This document shows positions 4,540 to 48,804 of a stretch of DNA of 64,000 nt, in pieces; position 1 is the stretch's first letter, and every line of letters begins with the position of its first letter. A program made the position numbers and the translations under genes. This stretch comes from Dipteris shenzhenensis (Eukaryota), in NCBI GenBank assembly GCA_047967505.1, contig CM106538.1. The stretch is one strand, 5' to 3'. The notes under the pieces are model-generated. The model was not told the DNA's origin. It saw only the letters and a program-made list of their open reading frames with translations, and did no database searches.

Positions 4540-4592
4540 ACCTCCCACTTAAAGGACAATGTGCCTTTAAGGGAGAACAACTAGTGAGCATA

Positions 4593-10167: not shown

Positions 10168-10179
10168 GCTCTGATACCA
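10168..10179 (-). promoter_or_regulatory. Primer-binding site, initiator tRNA-Met
   Basis: TGGTATCAGAGC on the minus strand, 2 nt from the 5' LTR. Confidence 0.95.
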
Positions 10180-10181
10180 AT

Positions 10182-10352
10182 TGAGAGTGCTCTCAACGGA
10201 AGCAATAGCAGAAGGGGGAGAGAGAGAGACAGAGAGCCACACAAGTTTCGGTGGGTACAGAACCACCCTAATCTTCTTTTTCATTCATTTGTATATGTGT
10301 TTGAGTATTGTACATAATCGAGGTAAAGGCACAGTGACCTTTAACCCCCATA
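10182..10352 (-). repeat. Copia 5' LTR
   Basis: Matches 4369-4539; the right terminus reads TA instead of CA and is followed by the ATTAG TSD. Confidence 0.95.
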
Positions 10353-13300
10353 ATTAGAAGAAGAACCACGGTGGTCTCTAGGCATATGCTGCATGATGTT
10401 AAAAATAGGTGACTCGCTCTCCACTAGACGAGTAGATGAGAGGCTGTAGCTGGTTGTTAGAAGAAACATAAGTCCACAATGAAAATGCTGTCAATAGTGA
10501 GAGGCAGTTAGCCTCAACCAGGACTAAGAGGTAGAGAAGACTATGAGACCACAGCTGAGTGGTATCGAGACCATTAGGCACGGGGATGCTACTAATATGT
10601 CATAGAGGACGAGCCTGTATGCCCAGCTTGGACTAGGTTACATAAGCAGGGAAGTGGTCCTTCTAGCACTAGGGCATGAGCTTACAAGGGGACAAGAACG
10701 TACATATATGCGCGAAGCGGCTATGTATATATTTGTCATGCTTACAAAAAGCCCCCCACCACATGTTGAAGTTTTATATTAGGCAGTTTCTTTTATATTG
10801 CTTCGCCAGGGATCCGCTCACTTGCTAAATACATTTAGGTGACGTATAGAACCTTTCGTACGTTGAAAGAAATGAGGTACGCAATTCCTGGATCATCTTG
10901 CATGCTCGAATAGTTAGCATTAGATTGGAGGGAGGATCACTATGATCTCCAAGAGAACTATGCGCGAAGTAGAGCTTTATGGTTCGTATACCATCAGCAC
11001 TCATAGTACCGGTCTCTGAGAATGGCATGGTAACCTTCATAAAATAAAATCCAGTAGTTGACAGTATAGCTATAGAGATCTTATCGCGTCTCAGTAGGTA
11101 ATGGTACTACTTTCAATATGTAGCTTGGAGTGTATATGTGCAACTGACATGGCCTATTAGTGATCTTAGAAGATATGTCCCAAGGTGGCCCACTACATAT
11201 TAATTTCTCAAATTTTTAATACGCAACGGCTTGGATATGCAAGCTAAGTCTCACGTAATCTTATTACATCAAGGAGTCTGAGACAAGAGAGTCATATTGA
11301 CATAGCCATGGTATTAGGGAGCCATATTTTCAATATATATAGCAATGGAAAACTGTGAAATCCCCTTATGCTCTAGTTTTTGAAGCTTGGATAACATTTA
11401 CATATCAATTGTAGTCCTTAACATGTCGAGATATGTATATGGGACTAGAAGTGGACATGGGACTTTAGCTCGCATCTACATTCACTATAAAATAGTCAAT
11501 GAATCTTTGAATTACTAATTGTACTATCATGTGACACTCAAAAAGATGATTTAGAGAATGGACATAAGTATATTGGATAGGACGAGCTGTTATTCCTTTG
11601 CCTCCTCTTGTATGACAGCCAAAACTAAAAGTTGATGTTGGATGGACCAGGACCTACAACTTATCCACCAAATGAATTATGGATTGTTGTGGGCACACCT
11701 TATGTGTAGGATTGTGAGCTTACTAGCATGCTTTTTAGAATACTACTGTAGATGGACATGGGTAACAAATGTATAGGGGCATTGAAGCCTGTCTTCCCAA
11801 AATGTGAGACTAATTATGGTTTCTTTTTTGGATGGTGGCAGGTGAGTCCCTATACTTCTCTGCGTGGTTTCTGGAGGAGCATGCATGATGGAGCCAGATG
11901 GTGACAATAGGATGGAAACTGAAACTATAAAGAACTGAATTTTTGGCTATCAGCTTTTTTCACTACCTTTTAATCTACAAATACTATTAATCCCATGGAT
12001 CGTATGGATGGAACTTCTCTTGATGATTTTTTGAAAACAGTTGGATATTTTGTGGCAAGTAGTTATTCCACATGTTCGGTTTGAAGCCTGCTTTGACTGA
12101 TATCCAAAATGAGAAAAACTAATTATGGAGGCCTTGACCTCCTTCTATTGACGAGCAGTTTTTTGTGGATAACTCTAGACAATGAACTTGACTTGGATAA
12201 GATAGCTCTTGGAAGCTACAAACATTTCTCTTAATCCTGAGGTTTTATACATAATGATCTTCTGACAGTATGAGGGCTAATGTTCTTTTTATGGAAATGA
12301 GGAAATGACTGCTTTTACATTGCATAGGTTATGTTTATAAATGACTTGGGCAGTTAGTAGAATATGGATGATATGTTTGATTGCCTTAGGGGATGAATGG
12401 GTTGAATGAGAATATGCTATTTCAGTTCCATTAAAATAGGACTAAATACTAGTAGTGAAGCTTAAGGGGAATAGTTCCAAGTAACCACCTAGAGATGACA
12501 AAATGGATTGGGGTAAGTACCATTTGCTCTTGCTTGGGCATATACTCATTATAATGGAAATTTACAAAAGAAAGAGCAGTAAGAGGTATTGATTGGAATT
12601 AGCTTGGCGTATTACCTATAGTCTTGGGATTGGGAACTAGAAGAGAAAGATTTATCTAAGAATGTACTGAAGTTGCATGTGAGTAGATAGGATAAAACAC
12701 ACACACACACACACTCCTCCCCTTGGGGACCCTTGTGACCCTAGGTGTGCATGATGGGTCCACATGACTTTTATGCTACGGCCCCCCACATTGGTATGGG
12801 AGAGGAGTATCCTATCACTTGTTTAACACTTTGATGACCTTGGATATTATTATTGAAAGTTGGAGAAAAAGGTGCCTTCACTTTGTTGGATTTTTTGGTC
12901 CTTTATGTTTACTGTGAGATTTGGTAAATTTGGAATGTCTTTTCCCCAAAGTTATTAATCAATGGGAATTAGTGGATGGTGGTTTCACATACATGATTCC
13001 TAGTAATTTCGAAACATGACAAATGGGAGTTAGAAATTGATGGGACCAAAAAGGATATTGTTGGAGGAATTTTAATGGACATGCTTGGCAAGGAAATGGC
13101 ACATGCTATGAGAGGAGCATGGTGGAAATATGGCCACGTAGCAAATATTAAACTAAGAGAGCATGCCCCTTAATGCAAGAGAAGGTACACTCTTCCTTCA
13201 CCTCTAAGATACTTACTGAAACGGCTTCCACACAGCTCCAAGAAATGTGTGAAACTTCACATATCCCCGCATATCTAAGAGCTCACCTCCATCTGCTTTG

Positions 13301-19690: not shown

Positions 19691-20780
19691 CCCTCACTCC
19701 TCTCTCTCTCTCTCTCTCTCCCCTCCCTCTCTATGCTGCCCTCTCTCTCTCAGCCCCGCTCAGCCCCTACCGCTGAGCCCCTCTGCCTCAACCACCCCTC
19801 ACCCGCTCCTCTCCGCCTCTCTCCTGCTAGCCTTACTCAGCCCCTCCCTCTAGCCCCCGATAGCCCCTGCCCAACCCCTCCCGCTAGCCCCTATCACTCA
19901 GGCCCTCCCACTAGCCCCTCTGCCTCAGCCACCCCTCACCCGCTCCTCTTCGCCTCTCTGTGCTTTGCCTATGCTCCCCTCCCCTACCATCTCCCCTCCC
20001 TCTCTACACTGCCCTCCCTCTCTTAGCCCTGCTCAGTAGCCCCTCCCACTAGCCCTCGATAGCCCCCCCTCCCCTACCGTCTCCCCTCCCTCTCTACATT
20101 GCCCTCCCTCTCTCAGCCTCGCTCAGCCCCTCCCGCTAGCCCCTGCTCAGCCCCTCCCGTTAGCCCCTATCGCTCAGCGCCTCCCGCTAGCCCCTCCGCC
20201 TCGGCCACCCCTCACCCGCTCCTCTCTGCCTCTCTCCAGCTTACCTCAGCCACCCCTCACCTCCTTCTCACTTTCCGCCTCCGCCATGCCTCAGCCTCAG
20301 CCACCCCTCCACCTTGCCTCGCCTCAGCCTCGCCTCACTCTTCGCCTCGCCTCCCCTCACCTCCTTCTCTGCTTCCTCCCTCTGCCGCCACCTCCCCCTC
20401 CTACCCCAGCAGCTTCCTCCCCTCCATCCCCCCACCTCGTGCTCAAACCTCTCTCTCTCATACCCTTCTCTCTCTCCTCCCTCCCTCCTTTCCTCCCTCT
20501 CTCTCCCCCTCCACCCCTCCATCCCCCCACCTCCCTCTCGAACCTCTCTCTCTCATACCCCCCCTCTCTCTCCTCCCTCCCTCCTTTCCTCCCTCTCTCT
20601 CCCCCCTCCACTTCCCTCTTCCTCCTGGAGGCCGCGATCCCTAAGGCTCCTCTCTTTCTCTCTAAACTTTCTCTCTCTCTCTCTAGTTCCTCTCACCTCT
20701 CTCTCTCATACCCGCCTCTCTCTCTCCTCCCTCCCTTCTTTCCTCCCTCTCTCTCCTCCCTCCAGTTCTTTCTTCCTCCT
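18615..20780 (+). repeat. 2.1-kb CT-rich polypyrimidine low-complexity tract with a recurrent GC-rich motif
   Basis: Mostly C and T on the plus strand; a motif like gggggccgcggc(t/c)gccagg recurs near 18896, 19012, 19257, 19461, 19621 and 20627; (CT)n run at about 19642-19688. Confidence 0.9.
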
Positions 20781-23700
20781 AGAGGCAAAAATGGTAAAAC
20801 GGTATTTAATGCTCAATCAACCATGCAATGCATATCTGATCGGCATAATACTTTACTTGCACCTCAACCTAGGTAATATTGACTTGTTTAAAAAAAGGCA
20901 CACCCATCATATAAGTACTTGGTTGGATAACACACCTAAGGGCGTGTTTTTTTACGGATGTGCATATCACTAGGGGGGAAAGGGTGTATAATGCATGATC
21001 AATCATGCAAAGCATATCCAATGGTCACAATACTTTTCATGCACCTCAACCTAGTTTAACTTGACTTGGGTCACAATTTGTTGCACGCACCTCAACCTAG
21101 TTGAAACGGACTTGCGTGCAAAGTGGAGCCCCCATCTGAGAAGTACTTGTTTGAATAACACACCTAGGACCGTGTTTTTTTATGGTTGTGCATGACACTA
21201 AGGCGAAAACGGTGTTTTATGCTTGATCGACAATGCAAAGCATATCCGATGGGTACAATACTTTGCACACACCTTCAACTAGGTGGAATTCACTTACATG
21301 CAAAGTGGCATGCCCATCCCATAAGTACTTGATCGGATAACATACCTAGTAGCGTGTTTTTTTACGGCACACCTAGGACCGTGTTTTTTTATGGTTGTGC
21401 ATGACACTAAGGCGAAAACGGTGTTTTATGCTTGATCGACAATGCAAAGCATATCTGATCGGTACAATACTTTGCACACACCTTCAACTAGTTGGAATTC
21501 ACTTACATGCAAAGTGGCATGCCCATCCCATAAGTACTTGATCGGATAACATACCTAGTAGCGTGGTTTTTTACGGATGTGCATGACACTAGAGCAAAAA
21601 TGGTATTTAATGCTCGATTGACACTGCAAAAGATATCCGATGGGCACAATACTTTTCCTACGCCTTAACCTAGGTGGTATTGACATGTTTTCAAAGAGGC
21701 ACACCCATCCAATAAGTACTTGGTCAGATAACACACCTAAGGGCGTGCTTTTTTACGGAATGTGCATATCACTAGGGGAAAAATGGTATATAATGCATGA
21801 TCGACCATGCAAAGCATATCCGATGGTCACAATATTTTGCATGCACTTCAACCTAGTTGACACGGACTTGCGTGCAAAGTGGAGCTCCCATCTGAGAAGT
21901 ACTTGTTTGAATAAGACACCTAGGACTGTGTTTTTTTATGGTTGTGCATAACACAAGAGCAAAAACGGTGTTTTATACTTGATCGACAATGTAAAGCATA
22001 TCTGATGGGCACAATACTTTGCACACACCTTCAACTAGGTGGAATTTACTTACATGCAAAGTGGTCCACCCATCCCATAAGTACTTCATCGGATAATATA
22101 CCTAGCAGTGTGTTTTTTTATGGATGTGCATGACACGAGCAAAAATGGTATTTAATGCTTGATCGACAATGCAAAGGATATTCGATGGGCACAATACTTT
22201 TCCTACACCTTAACCTAGGTGATATTGACATGTTCTCAAAGAGGCACGCCCATCCAATAAGTACTTGGTTAGATAACATACCTAAGGGCATGCTTTTTTA
22301 CGGATGTGCATATCACTAGGGGAAAAACGGTGTATAATGTGTGATCGACCATGCAAACCATATTTGATGGTCACAATACTTTGCAAGCATCTCAACCTAG
22401 TTGAAACGGACTTGCATGCAAAGTGGAGCCCCCATCTGAGAAGTACTTGTTTAAATAACACACCTAGGACCGTGTTTTTTATGGTTGTGTATGACATAAA
22501 GGCAAAACCGGTATTTTATGCTTGATCGACAATGCAAAGCATATCCGATGGCATAATACTTTGCACATACATTAAACTAGGTGAAATTGACTCACATGCA
22601 TAGTGAAGCGCCCATCCCATAAGTACTTGATCGGATAACGTACCTAGTAGCGTGTGTTTTTTTACGGATGTGCATGACACTAGAGCAAAAATGGTATTTA
22701 ATCCTCGATCGACAATGAAAAGGATATCCGATGGGCACAATACTTTTCCTACGCCTCAACCTAGGTGGTATTGACATGTTGTGAAAGAGGCACACCCATC
22801 CAATAAGTACTTGGTCAGCTAACACCCCTAAGGGCATGCTTTTTTACGGATGTGCATATCACTAGGGAAAAAACGGTGTATAATGTGTGATCGACCATGC
22901 AAAGCATATCTGATGGTCACAATACTTTGCACGCACCTAAACCTAATTGAAACGGACTTGCGTGCAAAGTGGAGCCTCCATCTAAGAAGTACTTGTTTGA
23001 ATAACACACCTAGGACCATGTTTTTTTATGGTAGTGCATTATACTAAGGCAAAAATGGTGTTTTATGCTTGATCGACAATGCAAAGCATATTCGATGGGC
23101 ATAATACTTTGCACACACCTTAAACTAGGTGAAATTGACTTACATGGAAAGTGGAGCACCCATCCCATAAGTACTTGATCGGATAACATACCTAGCATCG
23201 AGTTTTTTTATGGATGTGCATGACACTAAGGCAAAAATGGTATTTAATGCTCGATCGACCATGCAAAGAATATCTGATGGACACACTACTTTTCCTATGC
23301 CTCAACCTAGGTGGTATTGACATGTTTCAAAGAGACACACCCATCCGATAAGTACTTGGTCAGATAACATATTTAAGGGCGTGTTTTTCTGCGGATGTGC
23401 ATCACTATGGGAAAAATGGTGGATAATGCGTGATCGACCATGCAAAGCATATCCGATGGTCACAATACTTTGCATGCACCTCAGCCTAGTTGAAAGAGAC
23501 TTGCGTGCAAAGTGGATCCCCCATCTAACAAGTACTTATTTGAATAACACACCTAGGAGCGTGTTTTTTTATGGTTGTGCATGACACTAAGGCAAAAACG
23601 GTGTTTTATGCTTGATCAATAATGCAAAGCATATCCGATGGGCACAATACATTGCACACACCTTCAACTAGGTGGAATTGACTTACATGCAAAGTGGCGT

Positions 23701-26700
23701 GCCCATCCCATAAGTACTTGATAGGATAACATATCTAGCAGCGTGTTTTTTTACGGATGTGCATGACATGAGCAAAAATGGTATTTAATGCTCGATCGAC
23801 CATGCAAAGAATATCCGATGGGCACAATACTTTTCCTATGCCTCAACCTAGGTGGCATTGAAATGTTCTCAAAGAGGCACACCCATCGGATAAGTAATTG
23901 GTCAGATAACATACCTAAGGGCATGTTTTTTTGCAAATGTGCATATCACTACGGAAAAAACGGTGGATAATGCGTGATCGACCATGCAAAGCATATCCGA
24001 TGGTCACAATACTTTGACGCACCTCAACCTAGATAAAATGGACTTGGGTGCAAAGTGGATCCCCCATCTAAGAAGTACTTATTTGAATAAGACACCTAGG
24101 ACCATGTTTTTTTATGGTTGTGCATGACACTAAGCCAAAAACGGTGTTTTATGCTTGATCGACAATGCAAAGCATATCCAATGGGCACAATACTTTGCAC
24201 ACACCTTCAACTAGGTGGAATTGACTAATTAGACATATTGCCCTCCATGCTCATAGTTTGGTCTGTGCTTGATTCGTATTCAAACAATGGTCCTAGCACA
24301 GATGATGTACTGTTCAATGAAGATCTTTCCCTAGCGGTTAGACTTGAGCCCAAAACGACCTCTAAGTCAACATTTGAAGCACTATCTTCTGGAACAATTT
24401 CAGGTCCTAAGATACGTCCGGACCTAAGATGCATGTATGTTTCTAAGGTTCAGGTTGGATTTGAGCTATGCTATCAAAGTGTTCAAGTTGTAACAATCAA
24501 AATGTGCAAGTATGGTGGAGAGAATTATTGCAATGCGCTGTAATAATTATTGCAGCGCCCTGAATTATTGGGGCTTCTTACTCACTCAGTCTGGTCAATG
24601 CACTTGTGTTATGGAAATGTTAACCCATGCAAAGTGGCATGCCCATCCCATAAGTACTTGATCGGATAACATTCCTAGCATCGTGTTTTTTTACAGATGT
24701 GCATGACGCTAGAGCAAAAATGGTATTTAATGCTCGATTGACAATGTAAAGGTATCCGATGGGCACAATACTTTTCCTCCACCTCAACCTAGGTAGTATT
24801 GACATGTTATCAAAGAGGCACACCCATCTGATAAGTACTTCGTCAAATAACACACCTAAGGGCGTGCTTTTTTATGAATGTGCATATCACTAGGGGGAAA
24901 ATAGTGTATAATGCGTGATCGACCATGCAAAGCATATCCGATGGTCACAATACTTTGCACGCACCTCAACCTAGTTGAAACAGACTTGCATGCAAAGTGG
25001 AGCCCCCATCTGAGAAGTGCTTGTTTGAATAACACACCTAGGACCGTGTTTTTTTATGGTTGTGCATGACACTAAGGCTAAAACGGTGTTTTATGGTTGA
25101 TCAAAAATGCAAAGCATATCCGATAGGTACGATTTTTTGCACACACCTTAAACTAGGTGGAATTGACTTACATGTAAAGTGGTGCCCATCCCATAAGTAC
25201 TTGATCAGATAACATACCTAGCAGCGTGTTCTTTTATGGATGTGCATGACACCAAGGCAAAAATGGTATTTAATGCTCGATCAACCATGCAAAGCATATC
25301 CGATGAGCACAATACTTTTCCTACGCCTTAACCTAGGTGGTATTGACATGTTTTCAAAGAGGCACACCCATCCGATATGTACTTGGTCAGATAACACACC
25401 TAAGGGCATGTTTTTTTGTGGATGTGCATATCACTACAAGAAAAACGGTGTATAATGCATGATCGACCATGCAAAGCATATCCGATGGTCACAATACTTT
25501 GCACGCACCTCAACCTAGTTAAAACAAACTTGCGTGCAAAGTGGAGCCCCCATCCGATAAGTACTCAAGTGTTTGAATAACACAACTAGGACCGTGTTTT
25601 TTTATGGTTGTGCATTACACTAAAGCAAAAATGGTGTTTTATGCTTGATCGACCATATCCAATGGGCATAACACTTTGCACACACCTTAAACTAGGTGGA
25701 ATTGCTTACATGCAAAGTGGCATGGCCATCCCATAAGTACTTTATCGGATAACATACCTAGCAGCATGTTTTTTTACGGATGTGCATGACACTAAGGTAA
25801 AAATGGTATTTAAAACTCGATCGACCATGCAAAGCATATCCGATGTACACAATACTTTTTCTATGCCTTAACCTACCTAGGTGGTATTGACATGTTTTCA
25901 AAGAGGCACACCCATCCGATAAGTACTTGGTCAGATAACACACCTAAGGGCGTGTTTTTTTACGGATGTGAATATCACTACAAGTAAAACGGTGTATAAT
26001 GCGTGATCGACCATGCAAAGCATATTCTATGGTCACAATACTTTGCACACACCTTAATATAGTTGAAACAGACTTGCGTGTAAAGTGGAGCCCCCATCCG
26101 ATAAGTACTTGTTTGAATAACACACCTAGGACCATGTTTTTTTATGTTGTGCATTACACTAAGGCAAAAATGGTGTTTTATGCTTGATCGACAATGCAAA
26201 GCATATCCGATGGGCATAACACTTTGCACACACCTTAAACTAGGTGTAATTGACTTACATGCAAAGTGGCATTCCCATCCCATAAGTACTTGATCAGATA
26301 ACATACCTAGCAACGTGTTTTTTTACGAATGTGCATGACACTAAGGCAAAAATGGTATTTAATGCTCGATCGACCATGCAAAGCATATCCGATGGGAACA
26401 ATACTTTTTCTATGCCTTAACCTAGATAGTATTGACATGTTTTTAAAGAGGCACACCCATCCAATAAGTACTTGGTCAGATAACACACCTAAGGGCGTGT
26501 TTTTTTGTGGATGTGCATATCACTATAGGAAAAACGGTGTATAATGCGTGATCGACCATGCAAAGCATATCCGATGGTCACAATACTTTGCATGCACCTC
26601 AACCTAGTTGAAACAGACTTGTGTGCAAAGTGGATCCCCCATCCGATGAGTACTGGTTTGAAAAACACACCTAGGACCGTGTTTTTTTATGGTTGTGTAT

Positions 26701-28435
26701 GACACTAAGGCAAAAACGGTGTTTTATGCTTGATCGACAAAGCAAAGCATATCCGATGGGCACAATACTTTGCACACACATTAAACTAGGTGGAATTGAC
26801 TTACATGCAAAGTGGCACACCCATCCCATAACTACTTCATTGGATGACCTACCTAGCAATGTGTTTTTTTATGGATGTGCATGACACTAAGGCCAAAATG
26901 GTATTTAATCCTTGATCGACCATGCAAAGGATATCCGATGGGCATAATACTTTTCCTATGCCTCAACCTAGGTGGTATTGACTTGTTCTCAAAGAGTCAT
27001 ACCCATCCGATAAGTACTTGGTTGTATGACACACCTAAGGGCGTGTTTTTTTTCGGATGTGCATATCACTAGGGGAAAAATAGTGTATAATGCATGATCG
27101 ACCATGGAAAGCATATTCATGGTCACAATAATTTGCACGCATCTCAACCTAGTTGAAATGGACTTGCGTGCAAAGTGGAGCTCCCATCTAAGAAGTACTT
27201 GTTTGAATAACACACTAGGACCGTGTTTTTTTATGGTTGTTCATGACATTAAGGCAAAAACGGTATATTATGCTTGATCCACAATGCAAAGCATATCCGA
27301 TGGGCACAATACTTTGCACAAACCTTAAATTAGGTGGAATTAACTTACATGCAAAGTGGCGCACCCATCCCATAACTACTTGATCGGATAACATACCTAG
27401 CATCGTGGTTTTTTATGGATGTGCATGACACTAAGGCAAAAATGGTATTTAATGCTTGATCAACCATGCAAAGGATATCCAATGGGCACAAAACTTTTCC
27501 TATGCCTCAACCTAGGTGGTATTGACTTGTTTTTAAAGTCACACCCATTCGATAAGTACTTGGTTATATAACACACCTAAGGGAGTGTTTTTTTACGGAT
27601 GTACATATCACTAGGGGAAAAACGGTGAATAATGCGTGATCGACCATGCATATCCGATGGGCACAATACTTTTCCTATGCCTCAACCTAGGTGGTATTGA
27701 CTTGTTTTCAAAGAGGCACACCCATCTGATAAGTACTTGCTCAGATAACACACCTAAGGGCATGTTTTTTTATGGATGTTCATATCATTAGGGAGAAAGT
27801 AGTGTATAATGCGTGATCGACCATGCAAAGCATATCTGATGGTCACAATACTTTGAACGCACCTCAACCTAGTTGAAACTCACTTGCGTGCAAAGTGTAG
27901 CTCCCATCTGAGAAGTACTTGTTTGGATAACACACCTAGGACCGTGTTTTTTTATGGTTGTGCATGACACTAAGGCAAAAACGGTGTTTTATGCTTGATC
28001 GACAATGCAAAGCATATCTGATGGGCACAATACTTTACAAACACCTTAAACTAGGTGGAATTGACTTACATGTAAAGTGGCGCACCCATCCCATAAGTAC
28101 TTATTCAAATAACACATCTAGGACCTTGTTTTTATAGTTGTGCATGACACTAAGGCAAAAACGGTGTATAATGTAGGATTGCCTATGCAAAGCATATCTA
28201 ATGGAAAAAATAGTTTGCATATCCGTGAACCTATGTGGTGTTGAGTTTCATGCAAAGTGATGCTTCCATACCATAAGTACTTGTTCGGATAACATACCTA
28301 GGAGCACGTTTTTTAACTGTAGTGTATATCACAAGGATGAAAATGTTGTATAATGCATGATTAACAATGTAAATCATATCCGATGGGCATTATACTTTGC
28401 GCACACCTCAACCTAGGTAGTATTGATTTGTGTGC
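20781..28435 (+). repeat. Tandem satellite with a 182-bp monomer and about 546-bp trimeric higher-order repeat (left part, about 40 monomers)
   Basis: aagtact recurs every 182 bp (21141, 21323). The variant tggtatttaa recurs at 21601, 22146, 22692, 23238 and 23779, a period of about 546. Confidence 0.96.
24227..24625 (-). mobile_element. About 400-bp retroelement-like fragment (leader plus possible gag N-terminus) inserted in the satellite
   Basis: Interrupts the monomer ttgact|(ta)catgcaaag with no TSD. The minus-strand ORF begins MHLRSGRIL, a motif typical of Gypsy gag N-termini. Confidence 0.6.
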
Positions 28436-29355
28436 TGTTATGGATAAAATTGTCTAAGGAAAAAGGCATTAATATGTATGTGTGTTTGTATATGTGGCAA
28501 TAGTATAATAAAATATGATGTGCATAGGGCCCAAGGTTGAGGTGGCAGGGCATGACCATGTGCCACCCTTCCATGTAAGAGGACCCATAAGGTGTGTTGT
28601 ACATAATCCATGATAGTAATATTATAAAATGCAAGGTGGCATGGCTCCTCCATGTGCCACCCCTCCACCTAGACTGCATTTAGTGAGATATGGCTCAAAG
28701 TCCATGGGAGAAGCAATATAAAATAGGTGGAGATGGCTATTATATTGAGTTATTCCCTCCATATGGGATAGGCCCATGTGGGGGAGGTATAGAAGGTCTA
28801 AGAGAGCAAGTTAAATAATGGGGAAAGTAGGATGAGGTGGCAAGATTCCTTGTGCCAGCCCTCCACTTGTCCTCCTAGAGGTTTGAACATATTATAAAAT
28901 TGGAAAGAGACCAAGGGAGTATCATAGACTTGAGATATGGGGCTTGATTTATGTGGAAAATTGAGGCAAAGGGTTGTCGCACACAATTGAGAGTGCGTAA
29001 CCACCTAGCTCACATGGGAGACTTTTCCACACACACCATGCATGTGGGAGGATACATTAATGTGGAGAGACCCCCTCTTTTGATATTTCCTCTCATTCCT
29101 TTCTTTCAAATAAAGTATGGTTCTCTTCCCTTGATGTCTCCATCTCTACATTCCTCCTCCTACCACGTACATGCTTCTCTTCCCCTTCTCCTTTTCCCCT
29201 TGTGTCATAGTCTCCCTCTTCCTTCCCTCCATTTCTAATTCCTTTTTCCCTCCTATGACAACCGTTCGCTCTCATGATCTCCTTTTCTCCATGGCCCTTG
29301 AGCGTCGCCATGCCTAGCCTCTAGCCTCTGGTCTCGGTTTCTTTTCTAGCTAATA
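28436..29355 (+). repeat. Gypsy 5' LTR (920 bp), lacking a 71-bp TATA-containing segment
   Basis: TGTTA...TAATA termini; about 8 substitutions versus the 3' LTR by eye. Confidence 0.96.
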
Positions 29356-29359
29356 GATT

Positions 29360-29398
29360 TGGTGTGGCTGCTGGGATTCGAGCCCAGGTCTCCACGGC
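29360..29398 (+). promoter_or_regulatory. Extended primer-binding site: 39-nt antisense copy of the 3' half of tRNA-His(GTG), including CCA
   Basis: TGGTGTGGCTGCTGGGATTCGAGCCCAGGTCTCCACGGC is the reverse complement of GCCGTGG-AGAC-CTGGG-CTCGAAT-CCCAG-CAGCCAC-A-CCA. The T-arm stem-loop is visible directly; the His assignment rests on my recollection of plant cytosolic tRNA-His. Confidence 0.88.
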
Positions 29399-29496
29399 TA
29401 GTGGCGAATCTTCTACTCATATGGGTCACATCTATAAAACTATACCATTTGTGCTCTTTCTAAGCTATTGCGCGTGCATTTGATTCGCGTGTCTCC

Positions 29497-29700
29497 TGTG
29501 CGACAGTTTTTTTTCGGGACTGCTGCAACTTCTGGTTGCGGATAGTTTTCTGTGTTCACCCGCGCGACAGTTCTCTGGACTGCTGCAACTTCTGGTTGCG
29601 GACAGTTTTCTGCGTTCACCCGCGCGACAGTTCTCTGGACTGCTGCAGCTTCTGGTTGCGGACAGTTTCTGCATTCACCTGCGCGACAGTTCTCTGGACT
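29497..29700 (+). repeat. 60-bp tandem repeat (about 3.4 copies) in the Gypsy leader
   Basis: tgctgca(a/g)cttctggttgcgga...cgcgcgacagttctctggac starts at 29521, 29581 and 29641. Confidence 0.93.
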
Positions 29701-30059
29701 AACAGCAGATCCCGCGCCCCCCCTCTCTCTTCTCTTCCTCTCTTTCTCTTTCTCTTTCTCTTTCTCCTCTCCTCTCTTTTTATTAAAGAGTAGGATTGGA
29801 ACCCAAGACCTCCCCCTTCACAAAAGAAAGTCTTATCATTGGGACAACAAGTTGGAAGTGGTAAAAATGTAATGATTTTTGTTCATATATTGAAATCGCG
29901 GGAACTGTAACTCTCTAACCGTAGGGAGTTTGCTCTTGCTGTAAAAAGCAAAAATACTTCATTTTATGTGCTCTATCCACATCTCTTGCTAGATCGCCGA
30001 TTCAGAACTTCTCCAAGCTCACTTCACGGATGCACGCCACACGAGAAGGGTGGACATTT

Positions 30060-30470: not shown

Positions 30471-30694
30471 TGTTTCGACCAAGGAATCCATTTGTACCTA
30501 ATCAGTCTTTTGTGCCTCATTTCGAGCTTCAAATTGTAATTCTTTTTGGGCTTAAGATAAACTATCAACAAAGGATTGCAAGCTTATTTGGTGTTGAACG
30601 TTTGGCTCAAGTGTTGAATTCTCCCCACCCTCTCCTCCTACCTATCTTGGACTACCGAGAAACTTGGGATGTCCGAATTTTAGTCTTGGTGTGA
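30470..30694 (+). CDS. Accessory ORF B, 74-aa unknown protein
   Basis: Its ATG overlaps the ORF A stop (TAATG, 30468-30472) and its stop overlaps the RNase H ATG (TGATG, 30692-30696). Confidence 0.6.
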   Translation: MFRPRNPFVPNQSFVPHFELQIVILFGLKINYQQRIASLFGVERLAQVLNSPHPLLLPILDYRETWDVRILVLV

Positions 30695-31158
30695 TGACAT
30701 CTTGGATTCTTCAATTTGATGGAGCTTACAAACCTTCGACCAAGGCGGCTGGCGTGGGTGTGAAGCTCACTTCACCGGGTGGTGAGGAGTATTGTTACAG
30801 CAAGTCTTCACCCACAAGTACTTACAATCAAGCTGAGTACTCGGCGCTCATTTTTGGGCTACAAAAGGCACAAGAACATCATGCCAAGTAATTGGAGGTG
30901 CAAGGAGATTCTCAACTAGTGTGTGAACAAGTTAGTGGAAGGTGGAAGATGCGGAGCAAAGGCTTGGTTCCACGACATCAACAAGCCTTGGAACTTTGCA
31001 ACCAATTTGAAGAGGTAAAAATTCAGCATATCCCTCGAGCTCGAAATCTTGTTGCTGATTTCTTGGCACGTGAAGCTTGTACTTCAATCACGCATGATGC
31101 GAGTGGAAGCGCCACCCCAACAAAGCCGCAAGCCACGAAGGAGGGTGATCATTTGTAA
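30694..31158 (+). pseudogene. Stand-alone archaeal-type RNase HI (aRH) with one internal TAA at 30889-30891
   Basis: WILQFDGA, AGVGV, TYNQAEYSALIFGL, VQGDSQLVCEQVSGRW and HIPRARNLVADFLA: all four D-E-D-D catalytic residues plus the Arg typical of archaeal-type RNase H. Confidence 0.93.
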
Positions 31159-31294
31159 GGAATGCAAAGGTTGTGGTCATCATGAAACTAAGTGTTGGGC
31201 ATACTTAATACGAGTTCATCGACTTCGGAAGATCATCAGGAGGGTTCTCAAGGACATTGCTCAAAAGAAGGATGCCAGACCGCACACCCCTTGA
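31094..31294 (+). CDS. Accessory ORF D, 66-aa basic protein with a CCHC zinc-knuckle-like motif
   Basis: MMRVEAPPQQSRKPRRRVIICKECKGCGHHETKCWAYLIRVHRLRKIIRRV; CxxCxxxGHxxxxC spacing; overlaps the aRH 3' end. Confidence 0.55.
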   Translation: MMRVEAPPQQSRKPRRRVIICKECKGCGHHETKCWAYLIRVHRLRKIIRRVLKDIAQKKDARPHTP

Positions 31295-31651: not shown

Positions 31652-32600
31652 ATGGCTAACATTCCCGTGTTTTGTGGACGGGTAGAAGAAAATCCAAATG
31701 AGTATCTTGTGGCCTTCAAGCGCCGTTGTATTTCTCTCAACTTTCTTACTGAAGACAGATGGCTATTGGTTCTTTCCACATTTCTAGAGGGTTTGGCTCA
31801 AGTGTGGTATGAGAAGCAAGCCGAAGACGTTCGCTAAAGCTGGCCAAGGTTGACAGCAGCAATGATTGAGTATTTCGGCAAAGAAGCGGAGTCGGAGAAT
31901 GTGTACTTGCAGGTGGCAAACTTGAAGCAGTCAGAAGGTGAGACGGCACGTCAATATGTGGATCAAGCGGCCGTGCTCCTGGACCGTTTGATTGCCACAC
32001 AAGAGGACAATGCCGGGTTTCGAGCTGGAATGACTCAGCATGTGTTGGGCTACCTTGTAGCAGGAGCGAGTGATGAATTCCGCCTCAAGCTTAAATGGGA
32101 GAATCCAGAAACTATGGTGCTAGCACATGAGATTGCTCAAAAGTTTGATAAAGTTTAGTCTGGACCCCGCTTCAAAGAAGATGATTGTCCCTCCGCAACC
32201 CCCTCAATTCCTGCAACAACAACTTGGGGGGTCTAACTCAGGGGCATACCCCCACCCCTCATCAAGGATGTATCCACCGCCTCCACCTCAAATGTATGGT
32301 CCTCCCTTAGATGCTTACCCTCAATAAGGTGGATATCCTCACCCTCCGCCTCGAAGATTTCCCCAACCTCGCCCACGAGCCCCCCTCCTCTCTACTCCCA
32401 TGGCCCCTCCAACTAAAGAGGCCCCCCTTGCAACAGAACCTGGAGTCAATGACCTAGCCAAGGCCCTGAATGATCTTCGGCTTGAGATGGTGGGCATCAG
32501 AAATCAAGCCAACCGCCCTCCAAGAGACCGTGCTAATGTTGTATTTATGAGTGCCATCAGAAGGGTCATTATCGCACAGAATGTCCCAATATTCCAAGGG
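31652..32600 (+). pseudogene. Gypsy gag with stops and frameshifts
   Basis: IPVFCG...ENPNEYLVAF, FLEGLAQVWY, LKQSEGETARQY, a proline-rich linker and a zinc-knuckle remnant YECHQKGHYRTECP near 32545-32586. Confidence 0.9.
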
Positions 32601-35600
32601 TGAATCTTCTAAGTGAGTCGGGCACTGAGGATTTTGATGTAGAGATCCTCGACCTCGGGAAAAGAAGTCGTGCCACCTCGGACCCCTCTCCAAACCATGG
32701 ACCGGGCCGCCCCAGGAAGAAGGTGTCCTTCTTAGAGCCGTCAGATGCTGAGATGGCAGACCCACCAACAGAGAAGACTAAAAGATCTCGCAGGAGTAAG
32801 TGGTCACCCTCGGATTTTCCCATCGGCTCAGGGCAAGAGGACTATTCGGTCGTTCAGGACCTTGCTCATCGGTCTTTGAGCATCACACTCCCTCAACTAA
32901 TAGCATTAAGCCCTAAGGTGAGACGTGGGTTGCAGCAAGGTCTCTCAACAAGGAAGAGCAAGAAAAAGGGAAAGGTACGAGAGGTATCTTCTATCTCTGA
33001 AGAAATTGATCGGCACCCACATACAGTAGATGTCATCATAGATAATTGCCGTGTCAAAAATGTGTGTGTTGATGGGGGAGCTGCATGTAATATCATGGTG
33101 CCCCGAATCATGAAGAAATTGAATTTGAAATGTACAAGGCATTCCTCCACTCGAATCAAGGTAGCAGATGGTCGACGACTCTCCACCATGGGAGTCATTG
33201 AGGATTTGCCCATCACTGTCAATCGGTTGACCACCACTGTTAATTTCTATGTAGTGGACATTGAAGATATAGGCCGAAGTTACCCAGCCATACTCGGGAG
33301 ACCATGGTTGAGAAAAAGTGATGCAGTCAGCTATTGGAAGACAGGACACATGTCTTTTGGTGCTTCGAAGGAGCAGATCCCAGTGCAACCTGGTGCCATG
33401 GAACCGGAAGAAGAAGAGGAGCATGACAGTGATACTATCTCATCTTCAGTGTCTGAGTCCACGGAAGAATCACACGGGGGGGAGGAATTCTCAGAGGAGG
33501 AAGTTTACATGATGGGGGTGTCTCCGACCCTACCACCTACAGAAAAGATAACAGCTAGTCCTCAACAGCTTGAATCTATGCTTTCCCCAGATCTCACTCC
33601 AAGTGAGAAAGATGAGTTTCTAGAAATGTTCAAAGATTTCCCTGACCTCTTTGCAACTAGCTACCACCACCTTCGCCATGTGACTACCATAGAGCACAAG
33701 ATAGAGCTGAAGCCAGATGCGAAGCCTGTGGCTCAGAAGTATCGGAGATTAGGGCCCCTGCAGACCGATGCTTTGCGCTTAGAGTTGCAGAAGCTTGTAG
33801 AGGCTGGGTTTATTGTTCCGGTTCACAATACTGAATGGGTTTCACCAGTGGTAGTCATCCCAAAGAAAAACAACAAGTGGCGGGTCTGCATCGACTATAA
33901 GAAACTCAATGCCGCCACCAAGAGGGATCATCATCCTCTGCCCTTTCAAGACCTCATTCTTGAGAAGGTAAGTGGTCATGAGATGTATACTTTCTGTGAT
34001 GGTTACTCTGGGTTTTATCAAATCAGAATTGCCGAGGAAGATGTGCTTAAAACCACATTTGCCACGCCCTGGGGGACATTTGCATTCAAAGTAATGCCAT
34101 TTGGCCTCACCAATGCTCCTGTTACCTTTCAAAGATTTATGCAGATGGTGTTTGCTCCTTATTTGGGGGATTTCTTGGAGGTGTTTTTAGATGATTTTTG
34201 TATATTCTTGTCACATAAGGAGCACAATCCAGACTGGTCAAAGACCTTCTATATCAATCCTGGGTTTGGTGAGCACACTCTGGCAGGTATTCTTCTCCAG
34301 CAAGGGGAGGATCGGTTCATGTATCCCGTTCGATTTGCTTCTCGACAATTGCTCGACACTGAGCGACGCTATTCAGAGGCCGACAAGCATGCCTTGTCTT
34401 TGGTGTTTTGCATTGAGAAATTTAAGCATTATGTGGCTGGAAAGTCCTTCTTTATACTCACTGGCACTGGTCTTGCAAAGCAGGTTCTTCAATCACCAAA
34501 TCCCATGGGCTAGTTGGCCAAATGGTTGGCAGTTCTACAAGAATATGATTTCTCTTTCAAAATTGTAAAAGGGGGTTGTTCCAACTTGAAGAATGCTTTG
34601 ATTGATTTAGAGGAGTGCCTTGATGTAACCCTTGTAGCAGCTTCTGAAGGAAAGGAGAAAGTAGTCAAAATCTTGTAGATACCACCATACCAAGGATCCC
34701 CAACTTGTATCCGCAGAGATAGTAGGCGCTACACCCTCCTTGATGGGGTGTTGTACTGTCAAGGCATGGATGGGGTACTCAGACGGGCCATTGATGCAGA
34801 TGGTGCCTGGATGGATTTTGTGGAGGCCACTATGCCAGTGACTATACAGCTAAGAAGATTTTACATGCTCGATACTATTGGCCGACCTTGTTCAAGGATG
34901 TCACTTTGTATTGCAAAACCTGTGAACCATGTCAATTCTTTGGTAGGAAGGATTTGCGTCCTGGGCAACATCACCCAGTAATGTCCATCCATCCGTTTCA
35001 GAAGTGGGGAATAGATTTTGTCGGGCCCTTGCCCATGACTGCCCGCAAAAAGAAGTATCTTTTGGTAGCCACTCAGTACGTCACTAAGTGGGCTGAAGCT
35101 ATCACCCTCTCTGCTGCAAATGGCAAGGCAATTTCAAATTTCATATTTGAACGTATCTGCACAAGGTTCGGGACACCCATGGAGATAGTCTCTGACCATG
35201 GGAGTCCATTCTTAAATGAAGCAGTGGAGTTACTCATGGATCGCATGGGCATTGATCATCACACTTCTAGCATCTATTATCCAGCATCCATGGGTCAAAA
35301 ACAGAGCGGACCAATGGCCTCCTTTGTAAAACCATGGGAAAAATGGCCGCAGGGAATAGGAGCCAATGGGATCACAAGGTCACTGAAGCCGTGTGGGCTT
35401 ACAACATCACTCATAAAACATCTACAGGTCACACTCCTTTTGAGTTGGTGTATGGTACTGAGGCAGTTTTACCACTAGAGATAGAGATTCCGGCCTTGAG
35501 ATTGGCACAGGAATAGAGGATGACAGAAGATGAACATGTAGAGGCTAGATTGGTACAACTTGAGAAGTTAGATGAGACCCGACGCCTTGCACTACACCAA

Positions 35601-35905: not shown

Positions 35906-35918
35906 GGGGGGGGGGAAC
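35906..35918 (+). promoter_or_regulatory. Polypurine tract
   Basis: GGGGGGGGGGAAC immediately before the 3' LTR TG. Confidence 0.9.
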
Positions 35919-36909
35919 TGTTATGGATAAAATTGTCTAAGGAAAAAGGCATTAATATGTATGTGTGTTTGTATATGTGGCAATAGTATAATAAAATATG
36001 GTGTGCATAGGGCCCAAGGTTGAGGTGGTAGGGCATGACCATGTGCCACCCTTCCATGTAAGAGGACCCATAAGGTGTGTTGTACATAATCCATGATAGT
36101 AATATTATAAAATGCAAGGTGGCATGGCTCCTCCATGTGCCACCCCTCCACCTAGACTGCATTTAGTGAGATATGGCTCAAAGTCCATGGGAGAAGCAAT
36201 ATAAAATAGGTGGAGATGGCTATTATATTGAGTTATTCCCTCCATATGGGATAGGCCCATGTGGGGGAGGTATAGAAGGTCTAAGAGAGCAAGTTAAATA
36301 ATGGGGAAAGTAGGATGAGGTGGCAAGATTACTTGTGCCAGCCCTCCACTTGTCCTCCTAGAGGTTTGAACATATTATAAAATTGGAAAGAGACCAAGGG
36401 AGTATCATAGACTTGAGATATGGGGCTTGATTTATGTGGAAAATTGAGGCAAAGGGTTGTCGCACACAATTGAGAGTGCGTAACCACCTAGCTCACATGG
36501 GAGACTTTTCCACACACACCATGCATGTGGGAGGAGACATTAATGTGGAGAGACCCCCTCTTTTGACTATAAAAGGAAGGGGCTATTCCTTGATGAGACA
36601 CGCTCATTCTTGTAAAGCCACCTAGCTAGTATTTTGATATTTCCTCTCATCCCTTTCTTTCAAATAAAGTATGGTTCTCTTCCCTTGATGTCTCCATCTC
36701 TACATTCCTCCTCCTACCACGTACATGCTTCTCTTCCCCCTCTCCTTTTCCCCTTGTGTCATAGTCTCCCTCTTCCTTCCCTCCATTTCTAATTCCTTTT
36801 TCCCTCCTATGACAACCGTTCGCTCTCATGATCTCCTTTTCTCCATGGCCCTTGAGCGTCGCCATGCCTAGCCTCTAGCCTCTGGTCTCAGTTTCTTTTC
36901 TGGCTAATA
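35919..36909 (+). repeat. Gypsy 3' LTR (991 bp)
   Basis: Near-identical to 28436-29355 plus 71 bp (36567-36637) containing TATAAAA. Confidence 0.96.
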
Positions 36910-37860
36910 GTGCAAAGAGGTACCCCAATCCGATAAGCACTTGTTCGAATAACTCTTCTAGGACCGTGTTTTTTGACGGTTGTGCATGACGCTAAGGCAA
37001 AAACGGTATTTAATTCTCCCTTCACCATGCAAAGCATATGAAATGGGCACAATACTTTGCATGAGCCTCAAAAGTGGTGGTATTGAGTTACATTCAAAGT
37101 ACTACACCATCTGATAAGCACTTGGTTGGATAATACACCTAAAAGCGTATTTTTTTATGGTTGTGCATGACATTGAGGCACAAATGGTGTTTAATGCGTG
37201 ATATACCATGCAAAGCATATCCGATGGGCACAATACTTTGCACGCACCTCAACCTAGGTGTTATTGAGTTGCAGCAAAGTGGCATGTCCGTCCGATAAAT
37301 ACTTGATCAGATAACACACCTAGGAGCGTGTTTTTAAACGAATGTGCTTGACACTAAGGCAAAAACGGTATTTAAAGCTCAATTGACCATGCAATGCATA
37401 TCCGATGGGTAAAACACTTTACCTGCACCTCAACCTAGGTGGTATTAACTTGTTTGCAAAGAGGCACACCCATATGATAAGTACTTGGTTGTATAACACA
37501 CCTAAGGGCGTGTTTTTTTATAGATGTGCATATCACTAGGGAAAAAAAGGTGTATAATGCATGATCGACCATGCAATGCATATCTGATGGTCATAATACT
37601 TTGCACACACCTCAACCTAGTTGAACTTGACTTGTGTGCAAAGTGGAGCCCCCATTTGATAAGTACTTATTTGAATAACACACCTAGGACCGTGTTTTTT
37701 ATGGTTGTGTATCACACTGAGGCACAAATGGTGTTTAATGCATGATATACCATGCAAAGCATAGCCGATGCGCACAATACTTTGCATGCACCTCAACGTA
37801 GGTGTTATTGAGTTGCATGCAAAGTGGCATGTCCATCTTATGAGTACTTTATCGGATAAC
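36910..37860 (+). repeat. 182-bp satellite, right part (about 5 more diverged monomers)
   Basis: The same monomer resumes in register after the Gypsy TSD. Confidence 0.93.
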
Positions 37861-42289: not shown

Positions 42290-45200
42290 TGCCTATTTAC
42301 ATAGGCAGATTACCACATCTATAACCATCCAATTGGGAAGGAGATCCGATCTCCCATGTGGAGCAATTTGAACAAATATGCAAAGCATTCAATGCTCCTA
42401 GAGATCTAGAAATGGTTAATATATTCAGCCTCAGCCTAGATGGCAAGACAAGCCAATGGTACAAGGCCCTCAACCCAGAGGAGAAAGTCAACTGAGAGGT
42501 GTTACAGAAAGCCCCTTCATTATAGGCTTTGCCCCTAGTGGTCATAAGTGGAGCTCGATTAGTCAGTTATATCAAGTGAAATATATTGATAAGGAATCCC
42601 TCCGAGACTATATCACTAGGATCAAACACCTCAATTCCTGTTGCAAACCGCATGAGAGGATGAGCGACGAATGAGACTATTGCCACGCTTCCTCATGGGA
42701 TTGGTGGACCCGAAGCTACATGACCACTTAATTGTTATGAATCCCACTTCCTTTGAACTCTGCAGTAAAGTAGTTATCTGTATAAGTGATAATATGATGG
42801 ATAAGGACATCAAGGACAAGACTACAACTCCATCCAAGGTATCACAATCGCTAAGGTCTTCCATTATGGAGACTACCAAGAAGGAGGACAAAGGGTCTAA
42901 AGGTTTAGATATGGGTGAGCTAGCCTCTAGTCTATTGAATCATTTGGGCCAGTAGTGGAGGTCAAGAACCTCCTAGGAACCACCAAGTAACTCCCACTTA
43001 TTCCCTATAAGGGACAATGTTTTGTGTGGGGTATGCAATGGCAATAATGATACCTTTCAATGCCAATTTCCAAAGGTCCTTCCCCAATTGATCTACTAGT
43101 CGAGGCCCCACCTAGGCCTAATAGCCCCACCCAACCTGATGAATGCACAAGGATCCCCTCTAGCCAATCCAGGGTAATATAGGACATGAGATGCTCCATT
43201 ACCACCACCCATACTAGGTCTGCAACTGCCCCCACTTCGTATAACTCCAATAAACCAAATATTGGTGGAAGAACTACCTAATGATTGGGAGGAGGTAGAA
43301 CATGATCATAGTAGACATCCCACCTATCACCCTTATGAGGGGGGAAGTGGCATCAAACACTACCTCTTACATGAGGATCAACATGTTCCAGTGTTCCAGA
43401 CAATGCCCGTGGCTACAAGGGCAAGAGACATGAGCTCCTTGGCATGAAGGCCCCGATTCAATTATACATGTTAGGGTCCACACAAAGCAAGTGAATGCCC
43501 ATATAAGGGTGCAAGAAACCCTCCTCTCTCATGTTTTAAATGCCAATGGCCACATTTTTTAAAGGACTATCCATATAGGATCTTACCCTTGTGGTTTTGC
43601 CCACAACAAGTCCCATGCCCTTGTGTGCTGGAGTGGAGAATTTATTCAAGGATTGCCCCCTAAAAAGCCCAGTGACTCCAGCCACCCTGACCAAGAGCAC
43701 TAGCATCAATTTACTAAGTATTGAATAGGGTCACCTTGCAGTAGTGCCCTTGAAGGCCATCACAAGGATGTAGGAAAGGGCCATAGGCAAGGAGATGAAG
43801 AAGTAGCAAGGAAGGACAAAAAATCCACATTGCAAATTCGAGAGGCATGCCCAAGCCCTCGTGTAGACCAAGAAGGTCACCATGGTGGTCGAAGGCATGA
43901 ATCAGGGCTTATCCAAGATGGTTTAGATGAGAAGACATCCACCCTTTCCACCTCCTCTACCTCTGGACGAGTCCCTTCCCTAGACAATTCGAGGTATGCT
44001 CCCATACCTGGATGTAAATAAGCCAATGGGGGCCCAAGGCCTCACATCTCCAACCCCTCATAAGGGAACATATCCCGACCCAGCCTTAGAGAGACAATGC
44101 TTAATAGATTCTTAGAACTTGGTGCAAGAATGTCAAGAGAAGTTTGAGCATAGACTCAAGGTCAACAGAGGGTCAGAGACCACCATCCACCCTAATCACC
44201 TAACCACTCATAGGTGAGAAAAGGCACTTAGGGTGCTAGAGAGAGTGGAAGAAGAGAAACCTCCTAGCCCTAATAACTCAGGGTTAATGCAATGGATGTT
44301 CTAAGAGGACCCTATGCTGCAAACCCTATGCAACTTAATGCAATGGATGTTCCAAGAAGACCCTATGTTGCAAAACCTAAGAGAGGAAGGAGACCTTTAT
44401 GGCTTGGAGGAGCCTCTATCGATGGGGAGAGAGACCCCCAAGGAACCTTGTGATATTGCCAGGTTAGTGGCCTTCCTCTCCACATAGGTCAAGATGCCAA
44501 TTGCATCCTTGTTAAGAGGGAACCCTCTCCTATGGCGAGACCTCTCAAGATGGATGAACATGCAATTCTTGTCCCACCAACCCTGAAGACAACCAACCAC
44601 AGGAGGAGAGCCAAAACCTACCCAAGGTTCCCATCAATAAGTTAGGCTAGTACTTTGGAGGGGATGACACTAATGCAGCTATCCCCATAACCTACCAGAA
44701 CCAAAAGGTTGATGCCATCCTAGATGGAGGAGCGGGTGTGAGTGTCTGCACCAAAGAATGTTGGGAGAGGTGGGGAAAACCTTCCCTCAAGCAAACCCAT
44801 CTAGCAGTAAATCTAGCCAATAGAGGAATCGATGAACCCCTGGGAGTTCTCATGGGTATTAACATTAAGGTGTTTGGCTTCACATTCCTCGTTCGATTTG
44901 TGGCCATGGAATTCACCCAATAGCCCAGATATGAAGCCATCCTAGGTAGGCCCTTCCTACAAATGTCTAGACTCGTACATGATTGGTGCATGAATAACAT
45001 CTATTTACGGCATGAGGAGCAAATCATGCAAGTGGAACTATGTACATACAAGGCCCACCACTATCAAGACACCTTTTTGCCATGGAATCAGACACAACAG
45101 ACATGACTACAACACTGAAACTATTCCAATCTTATGAGAGAGGCATCGGGAAGGAAGCAGATGAGTTTTTGTATGCCCCTCTCCTCGAGTCAGAGTTCTC

Positions 45201-46255
45201 TCAAAATCGGATGCACATTCTGGCAAACATTGATGTCCCAGAAAGAATAGGGTTCTAAATAATAACCCTAAAGTGTGAAAAGTTGAATATAGTGGTGCCC
45301 CTTAGAATGTTTAACATGCTCCAAGTGAGGGTCAAATCAGACTACCGTATGTGGGTGCCACTACTACTCAGCATAAGTTCTCCTCCAATTAGGGATCTGA
45401 GTTAAGTTACCTCTCTAGTCGGCTCCATGAATGCCATGAAGGAGCCCCCCTCAGGTCCAAAGCTCCCAAGTTCCAAAAGCCCTAAGGCTTCCACCAGCGG
45501 CAAAGGGGGAAACCACCCAAAAGGAAGTGAAGGAGGAGGAGGATGAAAAGGAGGAACTATGACATGTACCTTCCCATTATAAGGCCTACATATGCTAGAG
45601 GATCACAAGATCTTATGCCAGCAATCCAAGAGAACCCAGGAAGAAGGGTGATTCCAAGGATACGATGGCCCAACCAAGGTTAAGGAAGTAAACCTGGCAT
45701 CAGAAGGTGAGGACCCATGATCAATATACATAGGAGATGACCTCACCCCAAACAAGGAGCATGCCTCAATTGCCCTCCAAGAGTATGAGGACTACATGGC
45801 TTGGAAGTACACATACATGAAGGGTATGCCACTAAGGTCATACAACACATGATACCCATGCTAGATGACATCAAGCTAGTGTGATAAAGTCCCTATTCTA
45901 TGAATCCCAAATATGCGCTCATAGTGAGGGAGGAGATCCAAAAATTCATAGATGTAGGATTCATCTATGAGATAGAGCATACAGACTAGGTGTAACCCAT
46001 TGTGATAGTCTTGAAGAAGAATGGAAAGATTCAAGTATGTGTAGACTTGAAAAAGGTCAATGCCACCACAAGCCGCGACCACTACCCATTGCCTTTCATA
46101 AAACATGTTCTAGAAAGAGTAGCCAGAAAGGAAGCTTATAGCTTCCTAAATGGGTTCTTGGGATACAATCAGGTATCCATCACCCCAAAAGATCAACATA
46201 AAACTACCTTTTCAATCGAGTGGGCTGTGTATTGGCCAAGGTGATGATATTTGGA
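42290..46255 (+). mobile_element. Highly decayed Gypsy internal region (gag, PR, partial RT), truncated in RT
   Basis: Gag-like GDPISHVEQFEQIC and ESLRDYITR; PR AILDGGAGVSV and AILGRPFL (about 44710-44960); RT KKNGKIQVCVDLKKVNATTSRDHYPLP and GYNQV..DQHKTTF. Confidence 0.88.
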
Positions 46256-48788: not shown

Positions 48789-48804
48789 CCCAGTAGCCAC
48801 ACCA
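48789..48804 (-). promoter_or_regulatory. Primer-binding site, tRNA-His (16 nt, one mismatch)
   Basis: TGGTGTGGCTACTGGG on the minus strand, 4 nt after the LTR end ...ACAACA. Confidence 0.85.

Follow-up and report, generated by a model that had tools for sequence, protein, structure and literature searches.

A young, defective Ty3/gypsy LTR retrotransposon of Dipteris shenzhenensis carries a primer-binding site (PBS) of 39 nt that runs, without a mismatch, along the 3' half of mature plant-type tRNA-His(GTG), from CCA-76 to G37. The site lies on the + strand at 29360-29398 of a 64,000-nt stretch of contig CM106538.1 (GenBank assembly GCA_047967505.1), here called the window, and reads TGGTGTGGCTGCTGGGATTCGAGCCCAGGTCTCCACGGC. 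An initial annotation had described it as a tRNA-His PBS reaching from CCA to about position 37, and this was borne out: the letters are as described, 39 of 39 pair, and the site begins 4 nt past the LTR, where a PBS belongs. The reading favored here, which we consider probable, is that it is a PBS for cytoplasmic tRNA-His(GTG) in which nt 19-39 preserve the trace of a single round of reverse transcription that went wrong in an ancestor of this copy. In that round the reverse transcriptase (RT) would have read through position 58 and been halted by the modified base at position 37; the extra 21 nt would since have been carried along as a passenger.

The element, all parts of which are on the + strand, is flanked by two copies of a 4-bp target-site duplication, GTGC, the left one (28432-28435) within a 182-bp satellite monomer and the right one at 36910-36913. 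The 920-nt 5' LTR (28436-29355, TGTTA...CTAATA) is paired with a 991-nt 3' LTR (35919-36909). Between the end of the 5' LTR, which the 3' LTR and the duplication together place at 29355, and the start of the site at 29360 on the coding strand lies a 4-nt spacer, GATT (29356-29359). The canonical 18-nt PBS (29360-29377) pairs with tRNA-His(GTG) positions 76-59, CCA included, and the 21-nt extension (29378-29398) with positions 58-37, i.e., the rest of the T-loop, the 5' strand of the T-stem, the variable loop, the 3' strand of the anticodon stem, C38 and G37. The untranslated leader holds 3.1 copies of a 60-bp tandem repeat (29517-29700, 95% matches) followed by a CT-rich run. An open frame at 32537-34513 encodes the gag zinc knuckle, aspartic protease, reverse transcriptase and RNase H; integrase, with its zinc-binding domain and core, follows at 34795-35478 in a frame that differs from that of RT. 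A polypurine tract, GGGGGGGGGGAA (35906-35917), stands directly before the 3' LTR.

The LTR pair, target-site duplication, polypurine tract and domain order PR-RT-RH-INT place the element in the Ty3/gypsy class, with a broken coding region: frame shifts separate RT from integrase, and the RT profile is matched over 1-165 of its 205 positions only. The LTRs differ by 8 mismatches in 920 aligned nt (K2P 0.0088) plus one 71-nt gap. The 71-bp segment, which contains the TATA-like CTATAAAAGG, is present in the 3' LTR (36561-36631) and absent from the 5' LTR (29077/29078); other copies have kept it, as seen from contig loose ends at 29082, and this copy probably lost its promoter with it. A short direct repeat, TTTTGA, bounds the gap in the 5' LTR. 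The duplication was established by comparing the flanks with uninterrupted 182-bp monomers, which read ...TTGACTTGTTTGCAAAGAGG..., against ...TTTGTGTGC / element / GTGCAAAGAGG at the insertion; a guessed 24-nt empty target site had no match with up to 3 mismatches allowed. Because the duplication is present and the LTRs are nearly identical, the element must have transposed at least once after it gained the extension.

The insertion splits the satellite array into parts of roughly 20750-28435 and 36911-37715. The array is long, with a dimeric higher-order pattern of ~364 bp, and the 182-bp satellite may be of the centromeric or pericentromeric kind. Past the leader of the element and before its coding region, upstream of gag, come two adjacent RNase H-like ORF pieces (30598-31158, +; Pfam RVT_3, E 7.8e-08 and 1.1e-11). 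This RVT_3 domain is split by a stop and followed by a CCHC-type zinc knuckle string (30598-31294, +). Whether it is part of the element is uncertain, and the region may derive from the tail of a nested LINE or represent an extra domain of an unusual kind; in Tat-type elements, as described in a plant survey (PMC6317226), the extra RNase H lies between PROT and RT, between RH and INT, or after INT, whereas here it is upstream of gag. Elsewhere in the window, a 760-aa open frame (60436-62718, -) contains a legume-lectin domain (E 2e-68), which makes a land-plant host probable; it may be a gene of the lectin receptor-like type, and no other gene seen in the window is clearly cellular. An A-rich minisatellite of ~1 kb (50780-51800) is built of 8- and 14-nt units of the AAATG type in a region with a GC content near 0.31.

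The match to tRNA-His was examined by scanning public metagenome contigs with a 27-nt core of the site (29369-29395), which yielded at least 140 matches at no fewer than 120 loci. All the listed matches lie antisense to tRNA genes. ARAGORN called tRNA-His(GTG) in 135 of the 140 listed contexts, the five misses being three genes cut by a contig end and two gene fragments. In 139 of the 140 listed contexts the gene ends in 36 nt identical to the reverse complement of 29363-29398, so that the site consists of TGG plus 36 nt antisense to the tRNA-His(GTG) 3' end; since the 27-nt core was the search key, 9 of these 36 nt alone are an independent test. The match continues beyond 36 nt in none of those 139 contexts. 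The reference genes come from other plant-like DNA, and the host tRNA is assumed from them. CCA stands next to the gene in only 1 of the 140 listed gene copies. As TGG, which pairs with CCA, is not gene-encoded, the template was a mature tRNA and not a tRNA gene or a SINE.

When tRNA positions are assigned from the ARAGORN cloverleaf, the site falls into consecutive parts: 29360-29362 correspond to CCA (76-74), 29363 to A73, 29364-29370 to the acceptor strand (72-66), 29371-29375 to the T-stem (65-61), 29376-29382 to the T-loop (60-54), 29383-29387 to the T-stem (53-49), 29388-29391 to the variable loop, 29392-29396 to the anticodon stem (43-39), 29397 to C38 and 29398 to G37. At 29399 the element has T, where pairing with G36 would need C. 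The T-loop CTCGAAT, singled out by the initial annotation, was found as stated; it is the tRNA genes' own sequence, with C54, and no change in the element. A 6-nt identity between 29399-29404 and the tRNA D-loop was considered as a further continuation and is within chance. The 39-nt string is unique in the window (one match at up to 3 mismatches), and none of 100 shuffles gave any match.

An origin apart from priming, as a tRNA-derived SINE, a tRNA pseudogene, a retro-copied fragment lying beside a PBS by chance or an assembly artefact, deserves consideration in a repeat-rich window, tRNA-derived repeats being common in plant genomes. We regard it as very improbable. The stretch is antisense to the tRNA, starts with the complement of CCA and continues in perfect PBS register with no junction; it covers the 3' half only, the 5' half with its polymerase III boxes being absent, and is accompanied by neither a tail nor a duplication distinct from that of the element. 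ARAGORN found no tRNA within the window, and Rfam reported nothing over the whole window at gathering scores; over the site itself Rfam gave chance-level hits only, led by a T-arm-like segment of permuted tmRNA (E 2.1). The initial annotation had named an independently inserted SINE fragment as the alternative to be checked, and these features speak against it, as does a contig from another study, described below, in which the site joins the leader at the same point. Viral contigs scanned with the 27-nt core and with the 22-nt start of the PBS gave no match to either. Near 29790-29830, a string that resembles a T-arm on visual inspection was dropped, as Rfam gave it no support.

Further copies of the family were sought among sequencing-run contigs from four runs, aligned to 29000-29516. 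Two contigs, both short, reach the 39-nt site. The first, from run X3 (207 nt), matches 29341-29421 with 4 other letters and is without 6 nt of the extension, 4 at 29382 and 2 at 29387, the first 22 nt of the site being intact; it has the same extension-leader junction as the window copy and then ~23 nt of common leader before the two diverge. In another X3 contig the LTR match ends at 29353 and gives way to an unrelated flank. The second contig, from run X1 (86 nt), matches 29304-29377 with 11 other letters and then has a 12-nt loose end, CGAAATCTCCAT. Aligned by eye, 10 of these 12 letters are colinear with a shortened extension, a faint hint that the X1 copy may have one as well. The X1 run may be the window's own sample; its contig is clearly another copy. 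Positions 1-18 of the site align in both the X1 and the X3 contigs.

Because shortened forms occur in other copies, the extension was inherited in the family and was not made at the last jump of the window copy. The alignments suggest that it is eroding in other copies, with the first 18-22 nt retained; this would be more in keeping with a scar carried as a passenger than with a need for all 39 nt. The window copy and X3 have a common junction with the downstream leader; alignment with a distant relative carries no information on whether this is a deletion junction.

The distant relative, which is truncated, is the related element with a 16-nt site to which the initial annotation had pointed, and it is real. 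Its tRNA-His-type PBS (48789-48804, -) matches at 15 of 16 positions, with A for G at nt 11, and adjoins an LTR (49144-49774, -) that is ~70% identical to the LTR of the element. Its interior is not recognizable, and alignment downstream of its site carries no information. A degraded reverse transcriptase at 44720-46232 (+) is 40% identical over 132 aa to the RT of the element; lying on the + strand within the expected interior of a minus-strand relative, it suggests nested insertions. Three further sites in the window carry the motif TGGTATCAGAGC and diverge from one another after 12-14 nt. With the other primer sites in the window as short as this (12-14 nt, 16 nt), the 39-nt site is exceptional even within the window. 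The TGGTATCAGAGC-type LTR elements are at 4373-10353 (-), 52609-52620 (+) and 56413-59041 (+). One of them is copia-like, with a gag-pre-integrase and Pol beta-barrel ORF (7035-7754, -) and LTR pieces at 4373-4540 and 10186-10353; another has a ~375-bp repeat pair 2.27 kb apart and resembles a TRIM.

Plus-strand strong-stop synthesis is the sole step of LTR-retroelement replication in which the primer serves as template. The RT making this DNA would have copied the tRNA still attached to the minus strand; the stop at A58 would have failed, either because the primer was hypomodified or because the block was bypassed, and copying would have run on to m1G37 beside the anticodon. The over-long strong-stop DNA would still have completed the second strand transfer, fixing the extra 21 nt in the integrated copy. 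From then on the 21 nt would be transcribed, inherited in the element RNA and copied into the minus strand in each cycle, with nt 1-18 priming as usual; they would need no re-copying from tRNA and would not be required for priming.

Several published observations bear on this scheme. The normal plus-strand stop is m1A58, after 18 nt (PMC8599865), in agreement with the upper limit of about 18 nt given in the initial annotation. In tRNA-Lys3 a further stop is provided by m5Um54, and products of greater length reportedly lose complementarity to the minus strand and are not integrated (PMC8599865). The tRNA-His has C54, and a U54-based second stop would accordingly be missing, a connection that we draw ourselves. 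In 44 defective HIV-1 proviruses, 7-54 nt of tRNA-Lys3 are contiguous with the PBS, and these inserts were ascribed to deferred second-strand transfer after m1A58 read-through (PMC12657518). The Arabidopsis nuclear tRNA-His-GUG is methylated at G37 by AtTrm5a, with m1G down 95% in the mutant, and purified Arabidopsis tRNA-His also contains m1A (PMC6344853); human tRNA-His shows an RT signature of m1G37 (PMC6675128). The presence of m1A in Arabidopsis tRNA-His implies that A58 is normally a block, read-through being a rare exception and not a property of this tRNA. The end point at position 37 would thus fit a known block, m1G37, and the bases continue the PBS in register beyond position 59, as read-through predicts (29378-29398 for 58-37).

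Some details sit less easily with read-through. The match covers the base opposite G37, one past a clean stop before m1G37; the chance of such a match is about 1 in 4. The product stayed mobile, unlike those of HIV-1, which needs the extra assumption of a tolerated heteroduplex or of mobilization in trans. The extension is perfect in the window copy and decayed in copies elsewhere, and this could reflect re-copying or selection.

The same end point invites a second explanation, that the primer was a 3' half of tRNA-His (~37-76) produced by cleavage in the anticodon loop and that plus-strand synthesis ran off its 5' end. Run-off at G37 predicts a complementarity that ends in the anticodon loop and includes the base opposite G37, as is found. 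With a 1 in 4 chance of that base matching anyway, and with a half that could be cut elsewhere, this detail does not separate the two explanations; several cleavage positions are possible in the loop, so the exact end gives the half-primer no net support. Priming by tRNA halves does exist, but it has been reported in the plant survey for 5' halves in Ty1/copia elements only (PMC6317226), and the sites concerned pair with the anticodon stem-loop end of the 5' half and are without the CCA end (PMC6317226, PMC10886601); the present site starts at the CCA complement. A 3' half would also leave A58 to be passed while adding a cut made exactly at 36|37, which is less parsimonious, and the decay of the extension elsewhere, with nt 1-18 retained, is what would be expected if only 18 nt matter. 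Priming by a 3' half is, on balance, unlikely. The initial annotation had offered both routes, RT passing 58 and stopping near 37 or a 3' half as primer; read-through appears the better supported, given the HIV-1 footprints and m1G37, and the letters by themselves would be compatible with either.

A third explanation concerns what the 39 nt do now. The full-length site may be functional and maintained, either for better primer capture or as a fail-safe that keeps both 18-nt and 39-nt strong-stop DNA complementary to the minus strand. In its favor, the site is perfect over 39 nt in a family that has diverged (the 11 other letters of the X1 contig fall within 74 nt of LTR end and PBS), and the element transposed after gaining the extension. 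Both other contigs, on the other hand, retain 18-22 nt from the start of the site but have lost part of the extension, and in the distant relative the site is no longer than 16 nt; a PBS was found in none of the 140 listed metagenome core matches (120 fetched loci, 875 kb), and the RNA of 29340-29430 folds no better than shuffles (z 0.25). We consider maintenance of the whole site quite unlikely. Equally low credence is given to a more far-reaching version, in which a lineage of elements uses all 39 nt as its primer site, its plus-strand strong-stop synthesis halting at m1G37 in place of m1A58 or its primer being a 3' half of tRNA-His. Were it true, the length of a PBS would follow the modification map of the chosen tRNA, and a long site would rescue plus-strand transfer at either stop; LTR retroelements would then have a second natural way around their second-jump problem, and 3' tRNA halves would have a target of 39 nt. 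That 3' tRNA fragments target the site is speculation.

If the preferred explanation, read-through followed by inheritance, is correct, the site is a natural germ-line record of how an RT behaves when the m1A58 stop fails: it would proceed to the next base that blocks Watson-Crick pairing, m1G37, and its product could still integrate and be inherited. In the literature examined, as far as the sources cover it, such events had been documented in dead-end HIV-1 proviruses only. Should the pattern be general, genomic PBS extensions could be used to map the modification blocks of tRNAs and the hypomodification of primers in cells where elements transpose. Sites of this kind would be mis-annotated by software that sets an upper limit on PBS length or asks for 12-18 nt. 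Taken alone, the locus is of modest practical importance.

As for known systems, the site has the hallmarks of an ordinary PBS as given in the plant survey, which sought perfect matches of at least 12 bp (PMC6317226): it is found 0-5 nt past the 5' LTR, opens with TGG and pairs with the 3' terminus of a mature tRNA. It differs in length, 39 nt against ~12-18 nt, and in its primer, tRNA-His. The most frequent primers in the survey were Met, Arg, Lys, Asp and Asn, and Ala, Arg, Asp, Lys and Trp among non-chromoviruses; 4-bp duplications were seen in 6.2% of elements (PMC6317226). The main text of the survey, its per-element tables lying outside this scope, has no occurrence of tRNA-His. Within the open-access literature, subscription journals being outside the scope, there was no report of extended or His-type primer sites in plant elements and no heritable primer site extended to position 37; a 20-nt tRNA-His string occurred in none of the open-access full texts, and the main text of a plant tRNA-seq preprint (10.1101/790451) has no per-tRNA data for His.

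The same primer species is used by the tRNA-His-primed HERV-H (PMC6675128) and by Gypsy and Helenus families of bivalves and vertebrates (PMC10886601). HERV-H and the animal Gypsy and Helenus elements are animal elements, and an extension beyond the usual PBS is not mentioned for them in the portions of these reports that were available (PMC6675128, PMC10886601). The half-tRNA-primed Ty1/copia elements Osser, Bryco, Gymco-II and Bianca (PMC6317226) and fungal Helenus (PMC10886601) share with the present site that the anticodon-loop region marks one end. They pair with the 3' end of a 5' half, whereas the site described here covers the 3' half, beginning at CCA.

The closest parallel is provided by the tRNA-Lys3 inserts of HIV-1 (PMC12657518), in which primer-derived bases likewise adjoin the PBS directly, share its orientation and register, and reach past m1A58. 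Those inserts are 7-54 nt long and lie at internal deletion junctions in dead proviruses of somatic cells (PMC12657518). The present extension is 21 nt long, ends at position 37 and belongs to a plant retrotransposon; it has been inherited through the germ line, occurs in shortened form in other copies and was compatible with later transposition. The HIV-1 type of read-through footprint is thus already known, and what appears to be new here is one that is germ-line, propagated and ends at m1G37.
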